DNA from: a virus | Taxonomy: Duplodnaviria > Heunggongvirae > Uroviricota > Caudoviricetes | DNA: 11,444 nucleotides | IMG/VR virus record: IMGVR_UViG_2693429635_000028 | Strand: one strand, 5' to 3' | In this document: piece by piece, positions 1 through 11,444 of the stretch | Position numbering within the stretch: the first letter of the stretch is position 1 | Layout: every line of letters starts with the position of its first letter | Notes under the pieces: generated by a model | Databases searched by the model: none | Told to the model about the DNA's origin: nothing | The model's input: only the letters and a program-made list of their open reading frames with translations | Position numbers and translations under genes: made by a program

Positions 1-141
1 GAGCACGGGGGCTGGAAAGCCTTTCTGTGGACGCCGCCTTATGAGTGGCGGCAGATAAAGGTGACCTGCGCAAAATGGTCGTCGCGGGTCAGTATGCTGC
101 GTGTTGAGTTCAGCGCAGAGTTTGAACAGGTGGTGAACTGA
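1..141 (+). CDS. M: Minor tail protein M, 3' end only (5'-truncated by the window edge)
   Basis: Frame 1 is open from position 1 to the TGA at 139-141 (...RQIKVTCAKWSSRVSMLRVEFSAEFEQVVN*). The stop overlaps the ATG of L at 141 (ATGA-type coupling), as in the lambda M-L junction. Position directly upstream of L fits lambda gene order. Confidence 0.75.
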   Translation, partial: EHGGWKAFLWTPPYEWRQIKVTCAKWSSRVSMLRVEFSAEFEQVVN

Positions 142-839
142 TGCAGGATATCCGGCAGGAAACACTGAATGAATGCACCCGTGCGGAGCAGTCGGCCAGC
201 GTGGTGCTCTGGGAAATCGACCTGACAGAGGTCGGTGGAGAACGTTATTTTTTCTGTAATGAGCAGAACGAAAAAGGTGAGCCGGTCACCTGGCAGGGGC
301 GACAGTATCAGCCGTATCCCATTCAGGGGAGTGGTTTTGAACTGAATGGCAAAGGCACCAGTACGCGCCCCACACTGACGGTTTCTAACCTGTACGGTAT
401 GGTCACCGGGATGGCGGAAGATCTGCAGAGTCTGGTCGGTGGAACGGTGGTCCGGCGTAAGGTTTACGCCCGTTTTCTGGATGCGGTGAACTTCGTCAAC
501 GGAAACAGTGGCGCCGATCCGGAGCAGGAGGTGATCAGCCGCTGGCGCATTGAGCAGTGCAGCGAACTGAGCGCGGTGAGTGCCTCTTTTGTACTGTCCA
601 CGCCGACGGAAACGGATGGCGCTGTTTTTCCGGGACGTATCATGCTGGCCAACACCTGCACCTGGACCTATCGCGGTGACGAGTGCGGTTATAGCGGTCC
701 GGCTGTCGCGGATGAATATGACCAGCCAACGTCCGATATCACGAAGGATAAATGCAGCAAATGCCTGAGCGGTTGTAAGTTCCGCAATAACGTCGGCAAC
801 TTTGGCGGCTTCCTTTCCATTAACAAACTTTCGCAGTAA
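141..839 (+). CDS. L: Tail tip assembly protein L (minor tail protein L)
   Basis: 232-aa ORF, the same length as lambda gpL. Cys-rich C-terminus (CTWTYRGDECGYSG...CSKCLSGC) typical of gpL. Sits between M and K as in lambda. Confidence 0.93.
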   Translation: MQDIRQETLNECTRAEQSASVVLWEIDLTEVGGERYFFCNEQNEKGEPVTWQGRQYQPYPIQGSGFELNGKGTSTRPTLTVSNLYGMVTGMAEDLQSLVGGTVVRRKVYARFLDAVNFVNGNSGADPEQEVISRWRIEQCSELSAVSASFVLSTPTETDGAVFPGRIMLANTCTWTYRGDECGYSGPAVADEYDQPTSDITKDKCSKCLSGCKFRNNVGNFGGFLSINKLSQ

Positions 840-844
840 ATCCC

Positions 845-1003
845 ATGACACAGACAGAATCAGCGATTCTGGCGCACGCCCGGCGATGTGCGCCAGCGGA
901 GTCGTGCGGCTTCGTGGTAAGCACGCCGGAGGGGGAAAGATATTTCCCCTGCGTGAATATCTCCGGTGAGCCGGAGGCGTATTTCCGAGTCTGCCCTGGC
1001 TGA
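845..1003 (+). pseudogene. K: N-terminal fragment of tail tip assembly protein K (start of the JAB/MPN domain); frame ends prematurely at TGA 1001-1003
   Basis: ATG at 845, 5 nt after the L stop. Translation MTQTESAILAHARRCAPAESCGFVVSTPEGERYFPCVNISGEPEAYFRVCPG* contains the JAB/MPN N-terminal signature (AxxHAxxxxPxExCG). It stops after 52 codons and is out of frame (frame 2) with the downstream K-like ORF (frame 1). Confidence 0.5.
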
Positions 1004-1026
1004 GTGAGGCCGACCGGCGGCTGCAG

Positions 1027-1515
1027 GTGCAGAGTGATTTGCCGTGGTGGCTGGTCTGCCGGGGGACGATTCATAAGTTCCGCTGTGTGCCGCATCTCAC
1101 CGGGCGGCGCTTTGAGCACGGTGTGACGGACTGTTACACACTGTTCCGGGATGCTTATCATCTGGCGGGGATTGAGATGCCGGACTTTCATCGTGAGGAT
1201 GACTGGTGGCGTAACGGCCAGAATCTCTATCTGGATAATCTGGAGGCGACGGGGCTGTATCAGGTGCCGTTGTCAGCGGCACAGCCGGGCGATGTGCTGC
1301 TGTGCTGTTTTGGTTCATCGGTGCCGAATCACGCCGCAATTTACTGCGGCGACGGCGAGCTGCTGCACCATATTCCTGAACAACTGAGCAAACGAGAGAG
1401 GTACACCGACAAATGGCAGCGACGCACACACTCCCTCTGGCGTCACCGGGCATGGCGCGCATCTGCCTTTACGGGGATTTACAACGATTTGGCCGCCGCA
1501 TCGACCTTCGTGTGA
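1027..1515 (+). CDS. K: Tail tip assembly protein K, C-terminal NlpC/P60 (C40 peptidase-like) portion; no ATG start, the first conventional start is GTG at 1027
   Basis: 162-aa ORF (frame 1, open from 970 after TGA 967-969). Contains the SEAD remnant of the JAB motif just upstream (1003-1014) and an NlpC/P60-like Cys/His pair (DCYTLFRDAYHLAG ... HHIPEQ). Overlaps the start of I by 103 nt, as K does in lambda. Confidence 0.75.
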   Translation: MQSDLPWWLVCRGTIHKFRCVPHLTGRRFEHGVTDCYTLFRDAYHLAGIEMPDFHREDDWWRNGQNLYLDNLEATGLYQVPLSAAQPGDVLLCCFGSSVPNHAAIYCGDGELLHHIPEQLSKRERYTDKWQRRTHSLWRHRAWRASAFTGIYNDLAAASTFV

Positions 1516-2084
1516 AAACGGGGGCTGAAGCCATCCGGGCACTGGCCACACAGCTCCCGGCGTTTCGTCAGAAACTGAGCGACGGCTGGTATCAGGTACG
1601 GATTGCCGGGCGGGACGTCAGCACGTCCGGATTGACGGCGCAGTTACATGAGGTTCTGCCTGACGGCGCTGTGATTCATATTGTTCCCAGAGTCGCCGGG
1701 GCCAAGTCAGGTGGCGTATTCCAGATTGTCCTGGGGGCTGCCGCCATTGCCGGATCATTCTTTACCGCCGGAGCCACCCTTGCAGCATGGGGGGCAGCCA
1801 TTGGGGCCGGTGGTATGACCGGCATCCTGTTTTCTCTCGGTGCCAGTATGGTGCTCGGTGGTGTGGCGCAGATGCTGGCACCGAAAGCCAGAACTCCCCG
1901 TACACAGACAACGGATAACGGTAAGCAGAACACCTATTTCTCCTCACTGGATAACATGGTTGCCCAGGGCAATGTTCTGCCTGTTCTGTACGGGGAAATG
2001 CGCGTGGGGTCACGCGTGGTTTCTCAGGAGATCAGCACGGCAGACGAAGGGGACGGTGGTCAGGTTGTGGTGATTGGTCGCTGA
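1413..2084 (+). CDS. I: Tail tip assembly protein I (ubiquitin-like beta-grasp N-terminus, Gly/Ala-rich hydrophobic C-terminus)
   Basis: 223-aa ORF, the same length as lambda gpI. Characteristic Gly/Ala-rich hydrophobic stretch (GAAAIAGSFFTAGATLAAWGAAIGAGGMTGILFSLGASMVLGG). Start lies inside the 3' end of K as in lambda. Confidence 0.93.
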   Translation: MAATHTLPLASPGMARICLYGDLQRFGRRIDLRVKTGAEAIRALATQLPAFRQKLSDGWYQVRIAGRDVSTSGLTAQLHEVLPDGAVIHIVPRVAGAKSGGVFQIVLGAAAIAGSFFTAGATLAAWGAAIGAGGMTGILFSLGASMVLGGVAQMLAPKARTPRTQTTDNGKQNTYFSSLDNMVAQGNVLPVLYGEMRVGSRVVSQEISTADEGDGGQVVVIGR

Positions 2085-2102
2085 TGCAAAATGTTTTATG
2101 TG

Positions 2103-2122
2103 AAACCGCCTGCGGGCGGTTT
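2103..2122 (+). promoter_or_regulatory. Stem-loop in the I-J intergenic region (8-bp stem AAACCGCC/GGCGGTTT, loop TGCG) followed by a T-rich tract; possible attenuator or mRNA-stability element
   Basis: Perfect inverted repeat read directly: aaaccgcc-tgcg-ggcggttt, then tgtcgtttat. An SD-like GAGGA follows at 2138-2142, ahead of the J start at 2145. Confidence 0.4.
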
Positions 2123-2144
2123 TGTCGTTTATGGAGCGTGAGGA

Positions 2145-5100
2145 ATGGGTAAAGGAAGCAGTAAGGGGCATACCCCGCGCGAAGCGAAGGACAACCTGAA
2201 GTCCACGCAGTTGCTGAGTGTGATTGATGCCATCAGTGAAGGGCCGATTGAAGGTCCGGTGGATGGATTAAAAAGCGTGCTGCTGAACAGTACGCCGGTG
2301 CTGGACAGTGATGGGAATACCAACATCGCCGGTGTCACGGTGGTGTTCCGGGCTGGTGAGCAGGAGCAGACTCCGCCGGAGGGATTTGAATCCTCCGGCT
2401 CCGAGACGGTGTTGGGTACGGAAGTGAAATACGACACGCCGATCACCCGCGCCATCACGTCGGCAAACATCGACCGACTGCGCTTTACCTTCGGTGTGCA
2501 GGCACTGGTGGAAACCACCTCAAAGGGGGACCGGAATCCGTCGGAAGTTCGCCTGCTGGTTCAGATACAGCGTAATGGTGGCTGGGTGACGGAAAAAGAC
2601 ATCACCATTAAGGGCAAAACCACCTCGCAGTATCTGGCCTCGGTGGTGGTGGATAACCTGCCGCCGCGCCCGTTTAATATCCGGATGCGCAGAATGACGC
2701 CGGACAGCACCACAGACCAGCTGCAGAACAAAACGCTCTGGTCGTCATACACCGAAATCATCGATGTGAAACAGTGCTACCCGAACACGGCACTGGTCGG
2801 CGTGCAGGTGGACTCGGAACAGTTCGGCAGCCAGCAGGTGAGCCGTAATTATCATCTTCGCGGGCGCATTCTGCAGGTGCCGTCGAACTATAACCCGCAG
2901 ACGCGGCAATACAGCGGTATCTGGGACGGAACGTTTAAGCCAGCATACAGCAACAACATGGCCTGGTGTCTGTGGGATATGCTGACCCATCCGCGCTACG
3001 GCATGGGGAAGCGTCTCGGTGCGGCGGATGTGGACAAATGGGCGCTGTATGTCATCGGCCAGCATTGCGACCAGTCGGTGCCGGATGGCTTTGGTGGCAC
3101 GGAGCCGCGCATCACCTGTAATGCCTACCTGACCACACAGCGCAAGGCGTGGGATGTTCTCAGTGATTTCTGCTCGGCGATGCGCTGTATGCCGGTATGG
3201 AACGGGCAGACGCTGACGTTCGTGCAGGACCGACCGTCGGATAAGGTGTGGACCTATAACCGCAGTAATGTGGTGATGCCGGATGATGGTGCGCCGTTCC
3301 GCTACAGCTTCAGCGCCCTGAAGGACCGCCATAATGCCGTTGAGGTGAACTGGATTGACCCGAATAACGGCTGGGAGACGGCGACAGAGCTTGTGGAGGA
3401 CACGCAGGCCATTGCCCGTTACGGTCGTAACGTCACGAAGATGGATGCTTTTGGCTGTACCAGCCGGGGGCAGGCACACCGCGCCGGGCTGTGGCTGATT
3501 AAAACGGAGCTGCTGGAGACGCAGACCGTGGACTTCAGCGTGGGTGCCGAAGGGCTTCGCCATGTACCGGGCGATGTCATTGAAATCTGCGATGATGACT
3601 ATGCCGGTATCAGCACCGGCGGGCGCGTGCTGGCGGTGAACAGCCAGACCCGGACGCTGACGCTCGACCGTGAAATCACGCTGCCATCTTCCGGTACCAC
3701 GCTGATAAGCCTGGTTGACGGGCAGGGGAGTCCGGTCAGCGTGGAGGTCCAGTCCGTCACCGACGGCGTGAAGGTGAAAGTGAGCCGTGTTCCTGACGGC
3801 GTTGCCGGATACAGCGTATGGGGGCTGAAGTTGCCGACGCTGCGCCAGCGCCTGTTCCGCTGCGTGAGTATCCGTGAGAACGATGACGGCACGTATGCCA
3901 TCACCGCCGTGCAGCATGTACCGGAAAAAGAGGCCATCGTGGATAACGGGGCGCACTTTGACGGCGACCAGAGCGGCACGGTGAATGGTGTCACGCCGCC
4001 AGCGGTGCAGCACCTGACTGCCGAAGTCACCGCAGACAGCGGGGAATATCAGGTGCTGGCGCGCTGGGACACGCCGAAGGTGGTGAAGGGGGTGAGCTTC
4101 CTGCTCCGTCTGACCGTAACAGCGGACGACGGCAGTGAGCGGCTGGTCAGCACGGCCCGGACGACGGAAACCACATACCGCTTCAGGCAACTGGCGCCGG
4201 GGAACTACAGGCTGACAGTCCGGGCGGTAAATGCGTGGGGGCAGCAGGGCGATCCGGCGTCGGTATCGTTCCGGATTGCCGCACCGGCAGCACCGTCGAG
4301 GATTGAGCTGACGCCGGGCTATTTTCAGATAACCGCCACGCCGCATCTTGCCGTTTATGACCCGACGGTACAGTTTGAGTTCTGGTTCTCGGAAAAGCGG
4401 ATTACCGATATCAGGAAGGTTGAAACCACAGCGCGCTATCTTGGTACGGCGCTGTACTGGATAGCCGCCAGTATCAATATCAAACCGGGCCATGATTATT
4501 ATTTTTACGTTCGCAGTGTGAACACCGTTGGCAAATCGGCATTCGTGGAGGCTGTCGGTCAGCCGAGTGATGATGCATCAGGCTATCTGGATTTTTTCAA
4601 AGGCAAGATAGGGAAAACCCATCTGGCTCAGGAGCTGTGGACGCAGATTGATAACGGTCAGCTTGCGCCTGACCTGACTGAAATCAGGACGTCCATAACG
4701 GATGTCAGCAATGAAATAACACAGACCGTCAATAAGAAACTGGAAGACCAGAGTGCAGCGATCCAGCAGATACAGAAGGTTCAGGTTGATACAAATAATA
4801 ACCTGAACAGCATGTGGGCAGTGAAGCTGCAGCAGATGCAGGACGGACGCCTTTATATTGCGGGTATCGGTGCCGGTATTGAGAACACCCCTGACGGCAT
4901 GCAGAGTCAGGTGCTGCTGGCAGCAGACAGGATTGCGATGATTAATCCTGCGAATGGCAACACAAAGCCGATGTTTGTTGGTCAGGGCGATCAGATATTC
5001 ATGAATGAAGTGTTCCTGAAACGCCTGACGGCCCCCACCATTACCAGCGGCGGTAATCCTCCGGCATTTTCCCTGACATCAGACGGGAGACTGACGGCGA

Positions 5101-5642
5101 AAAATGCGGATATCAGTGGCAGTGTGAATGCGAACTCAGGAACGCTCAACAATGTCACGATTAACCAGAACTGTACGATTAAGGGCATGCTGGAGGCGAC
5201 CCAGGTCAGAGGAGATTTCGTTAAAGCTGTATCAAAAGCCTTCCCGAAAAAAGTCGGTACGTGGGGTAACACGGAAACACCAAACGGTACGGTTACAGTC
5301 ACCATCAGCGATGATCATAACTTTGACCGCCAGATTATTATTCCGCCCATTATTTTTAACGGTATAGCGTATGACGATCCGGGGAGCGGAAATAACCCAG
5401 GAGGCACGCGATACACGGGTTATGGTTTTGAAGTTCGCAAAAACGGCGTATTAATCGCATCCAGAGAAACTAAAGGGGCCATTCCCGGTAGTTACAGTGC
5501 AGTTATTGATATGCCGAGTGGCAGGGGAAGCGTCACTCTGGAGTTTAAGATTTTCCAGAAAGGCAATCAGGGGGCAGGCAATATCACCGACTGTACGGTG
5601 ATTGTGACCAAAAAAGCCGCTTCCGGCATCAGTATTCGTTGA
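2145..5642 (+). CDS. J: Host specificity protein J (tail tip central fibre), 1165 aa; N-terminal ~800 aa lambda-like with fibronectin type III repeats, C-terminal receptor-binding region divergent
   Basis: ORF begins [38 protein letters not shown], as lambda gpJ does. FN3-like segment ([26 protein letters not shown]). Good SD (GAGGA) 3 nt upstream. Length is 1165 aa versus 1132 aa for lambda J. Confidence 0.95.
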
Positions 5643-5663
5643 AATATTTATAACCCCAATAAA

Positions 5664-5688
5664 GGGCGTCAGGAATGACGCCTTTTTT
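5664..5688 (+). terminator. Rho-independent terminator between J and lom
   Basis: GC-rich hairpin GGCGTCA-GGAA-TGACGCC (7-bp stem, 4-nt loop, extendable by a G-U pair) immediately followed by TTTTTT (5683-5688). Confidence 0.75.
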
Positions 5689-5712
5689 ATTGCAGAAAAG
5701 CGAGAGGTAATT

Positions 5713-6312
5713 ATGCGTAAAGTTTGTGCAGCCATTTTGTCCGCAGCCATTTGTCTGGCCGTATCCGGTGCGCCTGCATGGGCGTCTGAACATCAGTCCA
5801 CGCTGAGCGCGGGGTATCTTCATGCCTCGACGAACGTCCCCGGCAGTGATGATCTGAACGGGATTAACGTGAAATACCGTTATGAGTTTACGGACACACT
5901 GGGGCTGGTGACGTCATTCAGCTATGCAGGAGACAAGAATCGCCAGCTGACCCGTTACAGCGATACCCGCTGGCATGAAGATTCCGTTCGTAACCGCTGG
6001 TTCAGCGTAATGGCGGGGCCGTCTGTGCGCGTGAATGAATGGTTCAGCGCGTATGCGATGGCGGGTGTAGCTTACAGCCGTGTGTCGACTTTCTCCGGGG
6101 ATTATCTTCGCGTAACTGACAACAAGGGGAAAAAGCACGATGTGCTGACCGGAAGTGATGACGGTCGCCACAGCAACACGTCTCTGGCGTGGGGGGCTGG
6201 CGTGCAGTTTAACCCGACCGAATCCGTGGCCATTGATATTGCTTATGAAGGCTCCGGCAGTGGTGACTGGCGCACTGACGGTTTCATCGTGGGTGTCGGT
6301 TATAAATTCTGA
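5713..6312 (+). CDS. lom: Lom/Ail/PagC/OmpX-family outer-membrane beta-barrel protein (lysogenic-conversion-type moron)
   Basis: 199-aa ORF with an N-terminal signal peptide (MRKVCAAILSAAICLAVSGAPAWA|SE) and a C-terminal ...DIAYEGSGSGDWRTDGFIVGVGYKF ending in an aromatic residue, as in lambda Lom. SD GAGAGG 6 nt upstream. Same position as lambda lom, downstream of J. Confidence 0.9.
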   Translation: MRKVCAAILSAAICLAVSGAPAWASEHQSTLSAGYLHASTNVPGSDDLNGINVKYRYEFTDTLGLVTSFSYAGDKNRQLTRYSDTRWHEDSVRNRWFSVMAGPSVRVNEWFSAYAMAGVAYSRVSTFSGDYLRVTDNKGKKHDVLTGSDDGRHSNTSLAWGAGVQFNPTESVAIDIAYEGSGSGDWRTDGFIVGVGYKF

Positions 6313-6338
6313 TTAGCCAGGTAACACAGTGTTATGAC

Positions 6339-6365
6339 AGCCCGCCGGTTCAGGCGGGCTTTTTT
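6339..6365 (+). terminator. Rho-independent terminator between lom and stf
   Basis: Hairpin AGCCCGCC-GGTTCA-GGCGGGCT (8-bp stem, 6-nt loop) followed by TTTTT (6361-6365). Confidence 0.8.
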
Positions 6366-6376
6366 GTGGGGTGAAT

Positions 6377-9300
6377 ATGGCAGTAAAGATTTCAGGTGTA
6401 CTGAAAGACGGCACAGGAAAACCGGTACAGAACTGCACAATCCAGCTGAAAGCAAAACGTAACAGCACCACGGTGGTGGTGAACACGCTGGCCTCAGAAA
6501 ATCCGGATGAAGCCGGGCGTTACAGCATGGACGTTGAGTACGGGCAGTACAGCGTTATTCTGTTGGTGGAGGGATTCCCGCCGTCACATGCCGGGACCAT
6601 CACCGTGTATGAAGATTCCCGACCCGGTACGCTGAATGATTTTCTCGGTGCCATGACGGAGGATGATGCCCGTCCTGAGGCACTGCGCCGTTTTGAACTG
6701 ATGGTGGAAGAGGTGGCGCGTAACGCGTCCGCGGTGGCACAGAACACGGCAGCCGTGAAGAAGTCAGCCAGCGATGCCAGCACATCAGCCCGTGAGGCGG
6801 CAACCCATGCGACTGATGCTGCAGGCTCAGCACGCGCAGCCAGCACGTCAGCCGGACAGGCCGCGTCGTCGGCTCAGTCAGCATCTTCCAGCGCAGGAAC
6901 GGCATCAACAAAGGCCAGTGAAGCATCGAAAAGTGCTGCTGCTGCAGAGTCCTCAAAAAGCGCGGCAGCTACCAGTGCCGCTGCGGCGAAAACGTCAGAA
7001 ACGAATGCGGCAGCGTCACAACAATCAGCAGCCACTTCTGCATCCGCCGCGACCACGAAGGCGTCAGAAGCAGCCACCTCAGCCCGGGATGCGGCGGCCT
7101 CAAAAGAGGCAGCGAAATCATCAGAAACGAACGCATCATCAAGCGCCAGTAGTGCCGCTTCCTCGGCAACGGCGGCAGCAAATTCTGCGAAGGCGGCCAA
7201 AACGTCTGAGACAAACGCCAGGTCTTCTGAAACGGCAGCGGGACAGAGCGCCTCGGCTGCGGCAGGCTCAAAAACAGCGGCTGCGTCGTCTGCCAGTGCC
7301 GCGTCAACAAGTGCCGGGCAGGCCTCAGCCAGTGCCACCGCCGCCGGAAAATCGGCAGAAAGTGCCGCATCGTCTGCTTCAACAGCCACAACGAAGGCTG
7401 GCGAAGCCACTGAACAGGCCAGCGCAGCAGCGAGGTCTGCTTCCGCAGCGAAGACATCCGAGACGAACGCGAAAGCGTCGGAAACCAGCGCAGAATCCTC
7501 AAAAACGGCTGCCGCATCGTCCGCCAGTTCGGCGGCGTCATCGGCATCATCGGCGTCTGCTTCAAAAGATGAGGCGACCAGACAAGCGTCCGCAGCGAAG
7601 GGCAGCGCCACGACAGCATCCACGAAGGCGACAGAGGCAGCTGGCAGTGCGACGGCGGCAGCACAGAGCAAAAGTACGGCGGAATCCGCGGTAACGCGCG
7701 CCGAGACAGCGGCAAAACGGGCAGAGGATATTGCATCCGCCGTGGCGCTTGAGGATGCAAGTACGACGAAAAAGGGGATAGTACAGCTCAGCAGTGCGAC
7801 CAACAGTACGTCTGAAACGCTGGCGGCAACGCCAAAGGCAGTAAAATCAGCCTATGACAATGCAGAGAAACGTCTGCAGAAAGACCAGAACGGCGCTGAT
7901 ATACCCGATAAGGGACGCTTCCTGAACAACATTAACGCGGTCAGTAAAACAGACTTTGCTGATAAGCGTGGTATGCGTTATGTGCGGGTTAACGCTCCTG
8001 CAGGTGCAATATCTGGAAAATATTACCCTGTTGTTGTTATGCGTTCTGCTGGCTCAGTAAGCGAACTGGCATCAAGGGTCATTATCACCACGGCAACGCG
8101 AACCGCAGGCGATCCGATGAATAACTGCGAGTTTAACGGATTTGTTATGCCTGGTGGCTGGACTGACAGGGGGCGTTATGCTTATGGAATGTTCTGGCAA
8201 TATCAAAACAATGAACGAGCCATCCACTCAATAATGATGAGTAATAAGGGCGATGATTTGCGCTCTGTGTTCTATGTTGATGGCGCTGCTTTCCCTGTTT
8301 TTGCGTTTATCGAAGATGGCCTGTCAATATCCGCACCTGGTGCTGATCTCGTTGTTAATGATACGACCTATAAGTTTGGGGCAACAAATCCGGCGACTGA
8401 ATGTATCGCGGCGGACGTTATCCTTGATTTTAAGAGTGGGCGTGGTTTTTATGAGTCTCATTCGTTAATCGTTAACGATAACTTGTCGTGCAAAAAACTT
8501 TTTGCCACAGACGAAATTGTAGCGCGTGGTGGTAATCAGATTCGAATGATAGGTGGGGAGTATGGGGCATTATGGCGTAATGATGGCGCTAAAACTTACC
8601 TGCTGCTTACCAATCAAGGTGATGTTTATGGTGGCTGGAATACATTAAGACCGTTTGCTATTGATAACGCAACCGGCGAACTGGTTATTGGAACCAAACT
8701 GTCCGCAAGTCTGAACGGTAATGCATTAACAGCAACAAAGCTGCAAACGCCAAGACGGGTTTCTGGTGTTGAGTTTGATGGTTCCAAAGATATTACTTTA
8801 ACCGCCGCGCATGTGGCTGCTTTTGCCAGAAGGGCAACGGATACATATGCCGATGCGGATGGTGGCGTTCCCTGGAATGCCGAATCAGGCGCTTACAATG
8901 TCACCCGCTCTGGCGACAGCTATATTCTGGTTAACTTCTATACCGGAGTCGGAAGTTGCCGGACCCTGCAGATGAAGGCGCATTACAGAAATGGTGGTCT
9001 GTTCTACCGTTCTTCAAGAGATGGCTATGGTTTTGAGGAAGACTGGGCAGAAGTTTATACCTCGAAAAATCTTCCACCAGAAAGCTACCCAGTCGGCGCA
9101 CCAATCCCGTGGCCATCAGATACCGTTCCGTCTGGTTATGCCCTGATGCAGGGGCAGACTTTTGACAAATCTGCCTACCCGAAACTTGCTGCCGCTTATC
9201 CGTCAGGCGTGATCCCTGATTTGCGTGGCTGGACGATTAAGGGCAAGCCCGCCAGTGGTCGTGCCGTATTGTCTCAGGAACAGGATGGCATTAAATCGCA

Positions 9301-9775
9301 TACCCACAGCGCCAGCGCATCCAGTACGGATTTGGGGACGAAAACCACATCGTCGTTTGATTACGGCACTAAATCCACGAATAACACTGGTGCGCATACC
9401 CATAGTTTAAGTGGCAGCACGAATGCAGCTGGTAATCACAGCCATAGAGATGGCCGTCGATTTAACCCCAGTGTTTTTAAAGATACTTATCAATATGGTT
9501 ATACAAGCTCAGGTCAAAATACCTGGGGTGTACAAGGCTCAGTAGGTATGTCTACGGGGTGGTTAGCGAATACCAGTACAGATGGTAATCATAGCCATTC
9601 ACTGTCCGGCACAGCAGCATCTGCAGGTGCACACGCGCATACTGTCGGTATTGGTGCTCATACGCACTCCGTTGCGATTGGTTCACATGGACACACCATC
9701 ACCGTTAACGCTGCTGGTAACGCGGAAAACACCGTCAAAAACATCGCATTTAACTATATTGTGAGGCTTGCATAA
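6377..9775 (+). CDS. stf: Side tail fibre protein Stf, long intact form (~1132 aa from the ATG at 6377; the ORF track extends to the GTG at 6371)
   Basis: N-terminus [26 protein letters not shown]... matches lambda Stf (orf-401) as I recall it. Long Ala/Ser-rich repeat region. C-terminus with repeated HxH motifs and ...[26 protein letters not shown], as at the lambda Stf / T4 gp37-type fibre tip. Stop TAA overlaps the tfa ATG (ATAATG). Confidence 0.9.
6730..7730 (+). repeat. Low-complexity Ala/Ser/Thr-rich coding repeat inside stf, with a recurring A-A-K-T/S-S-E-T-N-A motif (4 copies)
   Basis: Motif copies at about 6988-7014, 7116-7139, 7200-7223 and 7452-7475 (AAKTSETNA / AAKSSETNA). The composition generates long spurious ORFs in other frames and on the opposite strand. 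Confidence 0.8.
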
Positions 9776-10359
9776 TGGCATTCAGAATGAGTGAACAAGC
9801 ACGGACCATAAAAATTTATAATCTGCTGGCCGGAACTAATGAATTTATTGGTGAAGGTGATGCATATATTCCGCCTCATACAGGTCTGCCAGCAAACAGT
9901 ACCGATATTGCACCACCAGATATTCCTGCTGGCTTTGTGGCTGTTTTCAACAGTGATGAGGCATCGTGGCATCTCGTTGAAGACCATCGGGGTAAAACGG
10001 TTTATGACGTAGCGTCAGGGGACGAGTTATTTATTTCTGAACTCGGTCCGTTACCGGAAAATGTTACCTGGTTATCGCCGGAAGGGGAGTTTCAGAAGTG
10101 GAACGGCACAGCCTGGGTGAAAGATGCAGAAGCAGAAAAACTGTTCCGGATCCGAGAGGCGGAAGAAATAAAAAACAGCCTGATGCAGGTAGCCAGTGAG
10201 CATATTGCGCCACTTCAGGATGCTGTAGATCTGGAAATCGCAACGGAGGAAGAAACCTCATTGCTGGAAGCCTGGAAAAAGTATCGGGTGTTGCTGAACC
10301 GTGTTGATACATCAACTGCACCTGATATTGAGTGGCCTACGAACCCTGTCAGGGAGTAA
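9775..10359 (+). CDS. tfa: Tail fibre assembly protein Tfa (chaperone for Stf)
   Basis: 194-aa ORF, the same length as lambda Tfa and closely matching it as recalled ([78 protein letters not shown]...). Start is translationally coupled to the stf stop. Confidence 0.95.
10195..10314 (+). repeat. Direct repeat copy 1 (tfa 3' coding segment), about 89% identical to 11244-11363
   Basis: Manual alignment: 13 mismatches over 120 nt between 10195-10314 and 11244-11363, same orientation. Confidence 0.85.
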
Positions 10360-10373
10360 TCATTGGGATTATG

Positions 10374-10406
10374 CCGCAGCACGTCTTAAGCAAGAACGTG
10401 CTGCGG
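10374..10406. promoter_or_regulatory. Perfect 11-bp inverted repeat (CCGCAGCACGT ... ACGTGCTGCGG, 11-nt loop) between the convergent tfa and methyltransferase genes; possible bidirectional terminator or RNA-processing hairpin
   Basis: Read directly: ccgcagcacgt-cttaagcaaga-acgtgctgcgg. There is no adjacent U-tract on either strand (the T6 run at 10417-10422 is 10 nt away), so it is not a canonical intrinsic terminator. Confidence 0.4.
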
Positions 10407-10413
10407 TTGGATG

Positions 10414-11082
10414 CTATTTTTTCCCTGAAGCGGAAAACATTACTACAGTACCTTGAACCTTGGTTTTAACATTCTCGAAATGCTCTGAGAGTATATGTGT
10501 TAAGCCTTCTTCGGAATCTTTTGTGTTTGAAAAGATGCCTTTCTGATTGTAAATGCGCATCAGTTTTTGACCGAAGCTATTGTGCACAACTCCATCGCCA
10601 AGAATTGTGGCTCCGTATAGAGTTCCATCGTCAGTTAAGGCCTGCGCCGCATTGCGTATTACACAGCTTTTTGTAGATATATTTCCAGGCAGGCAGTGAA
10701 GAAGGTAAAACATGGAAATGGAATCAAATTGACCATGTAACGCCGCGGGATAAGGTTCAAAAACATCATGGCTAATTTTATGTTTAATTTTTGATTCCCC
10801 AGCCCTTGTAGATGCCGCGTTCAGGCTAGCTTCGTTCAAATCCATTAAAGATATCAGACTACTCTCAGGTACGTGAGTAAGGTAAAACCCAGTTCCAACA
10901 CCAATATCCAGATGGTTGTTACCTAAATGTTCCAGAAAGTGTGGAAGAAGGTGTTCCTTTGTAGGACATCCCCATGCAAGCCGATTTGATACTCCCAAAA
11001 CCCACCAGTCATAAAGCTTTAGGGTAAGTGGTGTGTAAATTTTAGCCCCATCATCTGTGTTTTTTTTCATTAATTTCACCAT
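10414..11082 (-). CDS. Putative class I SAM-dependent methyltransferase encoded by a low-GC moron (222 aa; the true start may be the internal ATG at 11070, which has a GGTGA SD)
   Basis: Motif I-like HLDIGVGTGFY followed about 20 aa later by an acidic residue (LISLMDLNEAS), consistent with a Rossmann-fold SAM-binding site. Markedly more AT-rich than the flanking tail genes. Opposite strand to the tail operon. By recollection only (unverified), similar cassettes such as ybcY in E. coli DLP12 sit between tfa copies. Confidence 0.6.
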   Translation of the reverse strand: MVKLMKKNTDDGAKIYTPLTLKLYDWWVLGVSNRLAWGCPTKEHLLPHFLEHLGNNHLDIGVGTGFYLTHVPESSLISLMDLNEASLNAASTRAGESKIKHKISHDVFEPYPAALHGQFDSISMFYLLHCLPGNISTKSCVIRNAAQALTDDGTLYGATILGDGVVHNSFGQKLMRIYNQKGIFSNTKDSEEGLTHILSEHFENVKTKVQGTVVMFSASGKK

Positions 11083-11138
11083 GTTATAGTTTTATTTGTG
11101 AATTAAATCAATTATGGCGATGAATTACAAGGGGTTAA

Positions 11139-11444
11139 ATGCTGCCGCAGCATAGCGATATTGAAATAGCCTGGTATGCTTCGATACAACAGGAGCCGAA
11201 TGGCTGGAAGACCGTCACCACACAGTTCTACATCCAGGAATTCAGTGAGTATATTGCGCCACTGCAGGATGCTGTAGATCTGGAAATCGCAACGGAGGAA
11301 GAAAGATCGTTGCTGGAGGCATGGAATAAATATCGGGTATTGTTGAATCGAGTTGATACATCAGTAGCTCTGGGTATGAAGCTGTTTGTAACTCATGTTA
11401 CAGTAACAGTCATTACTATCTCGAAGGTGCAAAATGTATATTGA
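11139..11444 (+). CDS. Truncated/remnant tail fibre assembly (Tfa-like) protein, 101 aa, probably a relic of a second tfa copy
   Basis: The internal segment [39 protein letters not shown] is near-identical to Tfa residues encoded at 10195-10314. N- and C-terminal flanks are unrelated to Tfa. SD-like AAGGGG upstream of the ATG at 11139. The stop coincides with the window end. Confidence 0.55.
11244..11363 (+). repeat. Direct repeat copy 2 (inside the tfa-like remnant), about 89% identical to 10195-10314
   Basis: Same alignment as copy 1. Similarity ends abruptly after ...GTTGATACATCA in both copies. Confidence 0.85.

Follow-up and report, generated by a model that had tools for sequence, protein, structure and literature searches.

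A recent, private deletion as the probable cause of a split tail assembly gene K in a lambda-like Escherichia coli prophage

The split K gene and its surroundings

In the stretch of prophage DNA analyzed here (11,444 nt, hereafter the window), the gene for the tail assembly protein K lies in two pieces in different reading frames, which raises the question of whether a working K can still be made and of what broke the gene. The ORF list shows that the window carries the distal genes of the tail module of a lambda-type prophage, and the order of its ORFs (L, K remnants, I, J, lom, stf, and tfa) is that of annotated relatives (Table 1). Its source is a lambda-like E. coli prophage of the type that adjoins ompT in related genomes. 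The K remnants occupy the position between L and I-J that is expected for lambda gpK/TAPK (RefSeq 'C40 family peptidase'), with a gap of 5 nt between the stop of L and the K start codon and an overlap of 103 nt between the K 3' end and gene I. All genes of the window other than K are intact; L is 100% identical to its counterpart in a prophage of E. coli SW071618, and the intact J shows that the remainder of the tail-tip module is undamaged. The gpK protein is needed for tail assembly and is not present in the virion (PMC12617516; PMC10721106), and it is predicted to process the ubiquitin-like N-terminal domain of gpI, its predicted substrate or partner (Iyer, Burroughs and Aravind, 2006, PMC1779556). 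Published tail structures show gpI from residue 101 onward only (PMC11101478), which is compatible with the predicted processing by K and is no proof of it.

Table 1. Positions of genes, gene remnants, and the deletion junction in the window.
Feature	Position	Strand	Description
L (minor tail/tail tip protein, 232 aa)	141..839	+	Intact; ORF list; annotated in relatives as phage minor tail protein L
K, two fragments	845-1515	+	ORF list
K 5' remnant	845..1003	+	48 native codons, 4 out-of-frame codons (VCPG), TGA
Deletion junction	987..989	+	G987 last and G989 first retained base; A988 in place of 74 nt (TTTCCG-A-GTCTGCC)
K 3' remnant	989..1515	+	Other frame; residues 74-247 of intact K
GTG, first codon at which the NlpC/P60 remnant (162 aa) could start	1027..1029	+	24 nt past the stop of the 52-aa ORF
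I (tail tip protein, N-terminal ubiquitin-like domain, 223 aa)	1413..2084	+	Intact; Lambda_tail_I 96.8 bits; strong SD
J (central tail fibre/host specificity, 1165 aa)	2145..5642	+	Intact; three substitutions and no indel vs SW071618
lom	5713-6312		ORF list
stf (long)	6371-9775		ORF list
tfa	9775-10359		ORF list
Methyltransferase, then tfa fragment		methyltransferase on −	ORF list

The initial annotation had described K as split over two frames, with a JAB start at 845, a TGA at 1001-1003, and an NlpC/P60 part in 970-1515, and both the ORF list and the Pfam searches agree with this description. Translation from the ATG at 845 reaches the TGA at 1001-1003 after 52 codons (MTQTES...EAYFRVCPG*), and the product is the N-terminal part of the JAB domain, including the conserved Glu19 in PAESCG. 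This 52-aa piece matches positions 3-57 of the Pfam Prok-JAB profile with 24.2 bits, slightly below the profile cut-off of 25 bits, against 52.3 bits for intact K. The open stretch of the second frame (970-1515) encodes the end of the JAB domain (LPWLSEAD with Asp81) followed by the entire NlpC/P60 domain with Cys121 and His187 (PF00877, 50 bits, full profile covered); this domain is thus still encoded with its Cys and His but is unlinked from the K start. The claim that the second frame contains no ATG applies upstream of the catalytic Cys, while an in-frame ATG does occur downstream of it, at 1177 (IEMPDF). No one ORF of about 225-250 aa in the window covers both domains, and the JAMM motif (E...HxH...S-x-x-D) is incomplete, with Glu19 kept, His68-Ser69-His70 deleted, and Asp81 present only in the shifted frame. 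An Rfam scan of the K region gave no match.

Several observations concern the neighboring genes. In relatives, RefSeq/PGAP annotates gene I as 190 aa from a GTG start that overlaps the K stop (window 1512) and has no SD, while no other SD in the window is as strong as that of ATG 1413 (GAGAGAGG, -9.3 kcal/mol), and within the 223-aa form the match to Pfam Lambda_tail_I starts at residue 14; the true gene I looks like this 223-aa form, overlapping K by 103 nt. The Rfam family IS009 (a candidate sRNA family, 228 bits) matches within the 3' half of tfa, and this stretch of tfa is repeated with 89% identity in the truncated tfa fragment past the minus-strand methyltransferase (window 10118-10316, 11243-11363, and 11139-11444). 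The Ala/Ser/Thr-rich repeats of stf (6770-7800, both strands) give long off-frame or opposite-strand ORFs of 306, 309, and 263 aa, which are composition artefacts and not genes. In addition, the closest whole-window matches (e.g., E. coli F437) contain a 1.76-kb insert between tfa and the methyltransferase (window 10338-10373) with a Pin-like recombinase, ydfK, and ynaM, and this insert is absent from both the window and SW071618.

The deletion and the intact K gene model

HK630, PhiR30_1, and reference lambda, compared by DNA alignment, and two E. coli prophages, compared by blastn, served to place the lesion exactly. Between the bases that correspond to window 987 and 989, intact K genes contain 74 nt (TATGTCG...CCCCGGTG), and in the window the single base A988 replaces TATGTCGCCGGAAGACTGGCTGCAGGCAGAAATGCAGGGTGAGATTGTGGCGCTGGTCCACAGCCACCCCGGTG of the intact gene, so that 74 nt went out and 1 nt came in, for a net loss of 73 nt. 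K residues 49-73 (MSPEDWLQAEMQGEIVALVHSHPGG) are gone, including HSHPGG with His68-Ser69-His70, the Zn-binding part of the JAB/JAMM domain in a protein composed of JAB and NlpC/P60 domains (PMC1779556). An 801-nt query from the window spans 874 nt in intact records and 873 nt in J02459/NC_001416 and two other records, and the identity of the region to lambda, HK630, HK629, DE3, and PhiR30_1 is 99.5-99.9%. The frame of K changes because the net loss is 73 nt, as a loss of 72 nt could not shift it. Alignment with lambda K and its homologues in lambdoid prophages confirmed that HSHPGG is missing; an earlier proposal of a 72-bp deletion was therefore right about the loss of this motif by deletion and wrong about the size, and the accompanying idea that the K start codon had been deleted fails against intact K, since ATG 845 is retained and it is the frame that is lost. 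Neither a direct repeat nor microhomology was found at the deletion endpoints when the intact gene was examined, and slippage between direct repeats was rejected as the mechanism here for this reason. The K remnants show no second defect.

The size discrepancy has its origin in the lambda reference sequence. The 1982 reference (J02459/NC_001416) lacks one G in GGC(G)TATTTCCG, at the equivalent of window 979, and this G is present in the window, in resequenced lambdas, in HK630 and PhiR30_1, and in the E. coli prophages F437 and SW071618. With the G, K is one ORF of 744 nt that begins at the counterpart of ATG 845, and its 247-aa product matches Prok-JAB over residues 3-104 (52.3 bits) and NlpC/P60 over residues 111-224. 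In the reference, where the G is missing, K falls into two frames and its annotation begins at the internal Met49 (MSPEDW...), which makes the 199-aa model a consequence of the one missing base; the figure of 72 nt came from counting against this G-less reference. The earlier model of K as a 199-aa protein starting with MSPEDW was mistaken accordingly, as intact genes give a 247-aa single ORF. The reference lambda K is like that of the window in being divided between two frames, the second of which holds the NlpC/P60 part. It differs in that its split comes from the absence of a single G shortly before the internal ATG and in that it has kept HSHPGG. The claim of a missing G rests on sequence comparison; suppliers' notes list it as +G at about 14266 relative to J02459, and a literature search for an explicit mention of the G missing from J02459 found none.

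The closest intact counterpart is the prophage of E. coli SW071618, a wastewater isolate from Galapagos, in which the L-K-I segment is 100% identical to the window across both flanks of the lesion and K is a normal 744-nt CDS. The structural genes of this prophage, which adjoins ompT, form a full lambda-like module that extends from terminase to the tail fibres. It differs from window 1-987 by 0 mismatches and from window 989-11444 by 7 substitutions and no indel, so that the identity between the window and this full-module prophage is 99.9% and the K lesion is the sole structural difference between the two. Against lambda, HK630, and PhiR30_1, the identity of the DNA retained in the window is 99.6-99.9%, and this DNA shares with lambda gpK/TAPK the L-K-I-J locus, the start codon, Glu19, Asp81, and the NlpC/P60 domain; unlike lambda gpK, the K of the window is without codons 49-73 and its frame is broken, so that the normal start yields no K-like protein. 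As to the substitutions relative to SW071618, none of the 7 falls in L, the K remnants, or I, and five alter amino acids, all of them in the host-recognition proteins J (H307N, P685L, and K821E at window 3063, 4198, and 4605) and Stf (V441A and A763S at window 7692 and 8657), which are numbers too small for a test of selection.

Distribution of the junction and constraint on the lost segment

The deletion junction of the window did not turn up in any of the collections searched. K-like sequence occurs in 4,254 of 5,426 complete E. coli genomes, and megablast with a junction-spanning 48-mer matched none of the 5,426, nor any of 50,697 phage records or the PLSDB plasmids. Similarly, a 60-mer blastn search of the complete E. 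coli genomes did not recover the window junction, and exact junction patterns were absent from the GTDB species representatives, IMG/VR, and the JGI metagenomes. A relaxed 19-mer search of the GTDB representatives gave 18 matches of 19-25 nt, mostly in Clostridia MAGs, which are chance matches. The gene-position index has no entry for the 52-aa or the 162-aa K product, and an exact search for the stf product also returned no record. A natural K variant was rejected as a description of this allele, the junction being absent from every collection searched. The K of the window is disrupted relative to near-identical intact orthologues and is private, which is the pattern of a recently inactivated pseudogene.

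A permissive junction search identified one other E. coli, OkiPb01679, with an independent deletion in K. This K (WP_464350544.1, 223 aa, NZ_AP042500.1 2678795-2679466) has lost 66 nt in-frame between two CTGGCTG direct repeats, which joins MSPEDW to LSEAD and likewise removes HSHPGG, and RefSeq annotates it as an intact C40 peptidase CDS. It is a natural loss of the same JAB segment as in the window, arisen independently, and the two events differ in kind: the OkiPb01679 deletion looks like slippage between the repeats and keeps the frame, whereas the window deletion has no end repeats and shifts the frame, the CTGGCTG pair in the segment accounting for the former and not for the latter. The OkiPb01679 prophage is an effector-carrying lambdoid prophage (nleA, nleG, and espV) whose tape-measure and portal genes are annotated as frameshifted, and its K is for this reason an example of decay and not of a K that works without JAB. 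The same prophage contains an arc/arc/ant insert between L and K.

Among phages, K is nearly always a two-domain protein. Queried by tblastn with the intact K, the full set of phage records gave 1,760 with a homologue, and in 1,720 of these (98%) K is in one piece with both domains (one place covering at least 80% of the 247 aa). An alignment was also made of nine K proteins from cultured phages, down to 28% identity, drawn from lambda-like, HK97-like, Mannheimia, Burkholderia, and Pseudomonas phages and from the Drexlerviridae. The JAMM residues E19, H68, S69, H70, and D81 are invariant in all nine, as are C121 and H187 of NlpC/P60. The invariance of H68, S69, and H70 places the deleted motif under strong constraint, and JAB activity is predicted from this conservation to be essential for K function. 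K genes with an NlpC/P60 domain alone have been described in some phages and prophages, where the gene at the K position next to the TAPI gene encodes no JAB domain; these forms were considered probably degenerate and typical of integrated prophages (PMC1779556). They are recurrent forms, in contrast to the window, where the N-terminal part of JAB is kept upstream as a truncated ORF and the allele is unique.

Taken with the intact counterparts, these results point most probably to a K pseudogene produced by a recent, private inactivating deletion in a lambda-like E. coli prophage. A lineage-private event removed 74 nt of K and put in one A; ribosomes that begin at ATG 845, which is coupled to the end of L, reach a stop after 52 codons, the NlpC/P60 domain is left without a proper start, and the prophage would be unable to build tails alone unless a co-resident lambdoid prophage supplied K. 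The lesion looks recent because nothing else is damaged in the remnant and only 7 substitutions in 11.4 kb of flanking DNA separate it from a prophage with intact K. Because lambda does not assemble tails without gpK, a tail defect is expected in this prophage when no K is supplied in trans. The initial annotation had gone further in suggesting a dead K in a tail-defective cryptic prophage; a dead K is the best reading, and 'cryptic' is over-stated because the other genes of the window are intact, the window is 99.9% identical to a full-module prophage, and K acts in trans. The K of the window is best taken as an ordinary, strain-private pseudogene and not as a new type of gene.

Alternative readings and significance

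An assembly or sequencing artefact, in which K of the strain is intact and the 74-to-1 swap arose in assembly or polishing (e.g., from mis-joined reads of K paralogues), is unlikely. Such an origin would fit a junction that occurs in no other sequence, and the K-like copies in E. coli genomes (median 2, maximum 8 per genome) complicate assembly. However, typical errors are homopolymer indels or contig breaks and not the clean loss of 74 nt with a 1-nt filler in unique, otherwise perfect sequence, both flanks match an actual prophage at 100% identity, and the same segment has been deleted independently in nature, in OkiPb01679.

It is improbable that the window encodes a functional JAB-less K, in which the NlpC/P60 remnant would be translated from GTG 1027 by reinitiation and would be enough for tail assembly. 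The GTG lies 24 nt past the stop of the 52-aa ORF behind a weak SD-like match of -5.0 kcal/mol, the domain that follows is complete with its Cys and His, NlpC/P60-only K proteins are found in some phages and prophages (PMC1779556), and the OkiPb01679 prophage shows an in-frame loss of the same HxH segment. Against this reading, a match of -5.0 kcal/mol is reached by about a fifth of window positions (the values for genes I and L being -9.3 and -7.2), the JAMM residues are invariant in cultured phages and 98% of phage K homologues have two domains, the NlpC-only forms were deemed probably degenerate by Iyer et al. (PMC1779556), and the OkiPb01679 prophage is decaying, with its tape-measure and portal genes frameshifted. 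In addition, the allele is private and gives no sign of maintenance by selection. The earlier suggestion of an NlpC/P60-only K expressed from GTG 1027 is disfavored by the weakness of the SD-like match, and low-level reinitiation at this codon, giving an NlpC/P60-only protein, is possible but unsupported. It is highly doubtful that the remnant, made at a low level, supports tails or that the prophage routinely uses the K of a co-resident prophage; if either were true, then together with OkiPb01679 it would mean that the JAB activity of gpK is dispensable and that the segment is a recurrent deletion target in prophage domestication.

An engineered or laboratory-selected deletion is very improbable. 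Such a construct might leave an internal deletion as clean as this one, with its 1-nt filler, its lack of microhomology, and its absence from every natural collection searched, but the junction has no restriction-site or scar sequences, the SNPs relative to an environmental isolate (SW071618) are scattered and natural-looking, and a frameshifting deletion of 73 nt would be an odd design. The initial annotation had also allowed for recoding, which as a -1 or +2 frameshift in 970-1003 would fuse the two frames into a shortened K. The frames overlap by 34 nt, and programmed frameshifting is used elsewhere in lambda tail genes (G/GT); the chance of recoding here is negligible, as GCCGGAGGCGTATTTCCGAGTCTGCCCTGGCTGA (970-1003) contains no X_XXY_YYZ heptamer, the two-frame layout is conserved in no relative, the overlap is no evolved signal because it was created solely by a deletion junction found nowhere else, and the fused product would still be without HxH.

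A recent inactivating deletion therefore remains the preferred reading of the K lesion, and its immediate significance is that one prophage is marked as probably tail-defective and that one more example of prophage decay is available. The comparison also affects the K gene model in general: the widely used lambda reference K of 199 aa is a truncated model that is misleading, as it was for the initial annotation, and the biologically relevant K is the 247-aa protein with a complete JAB domain. Finally, the natural alleles without HxH, in the window and in OkiPb01679, could serve as cheap reagents for the 2006 prediction that the JAB domain of K processes the ubiquitin-like domain of gpI.
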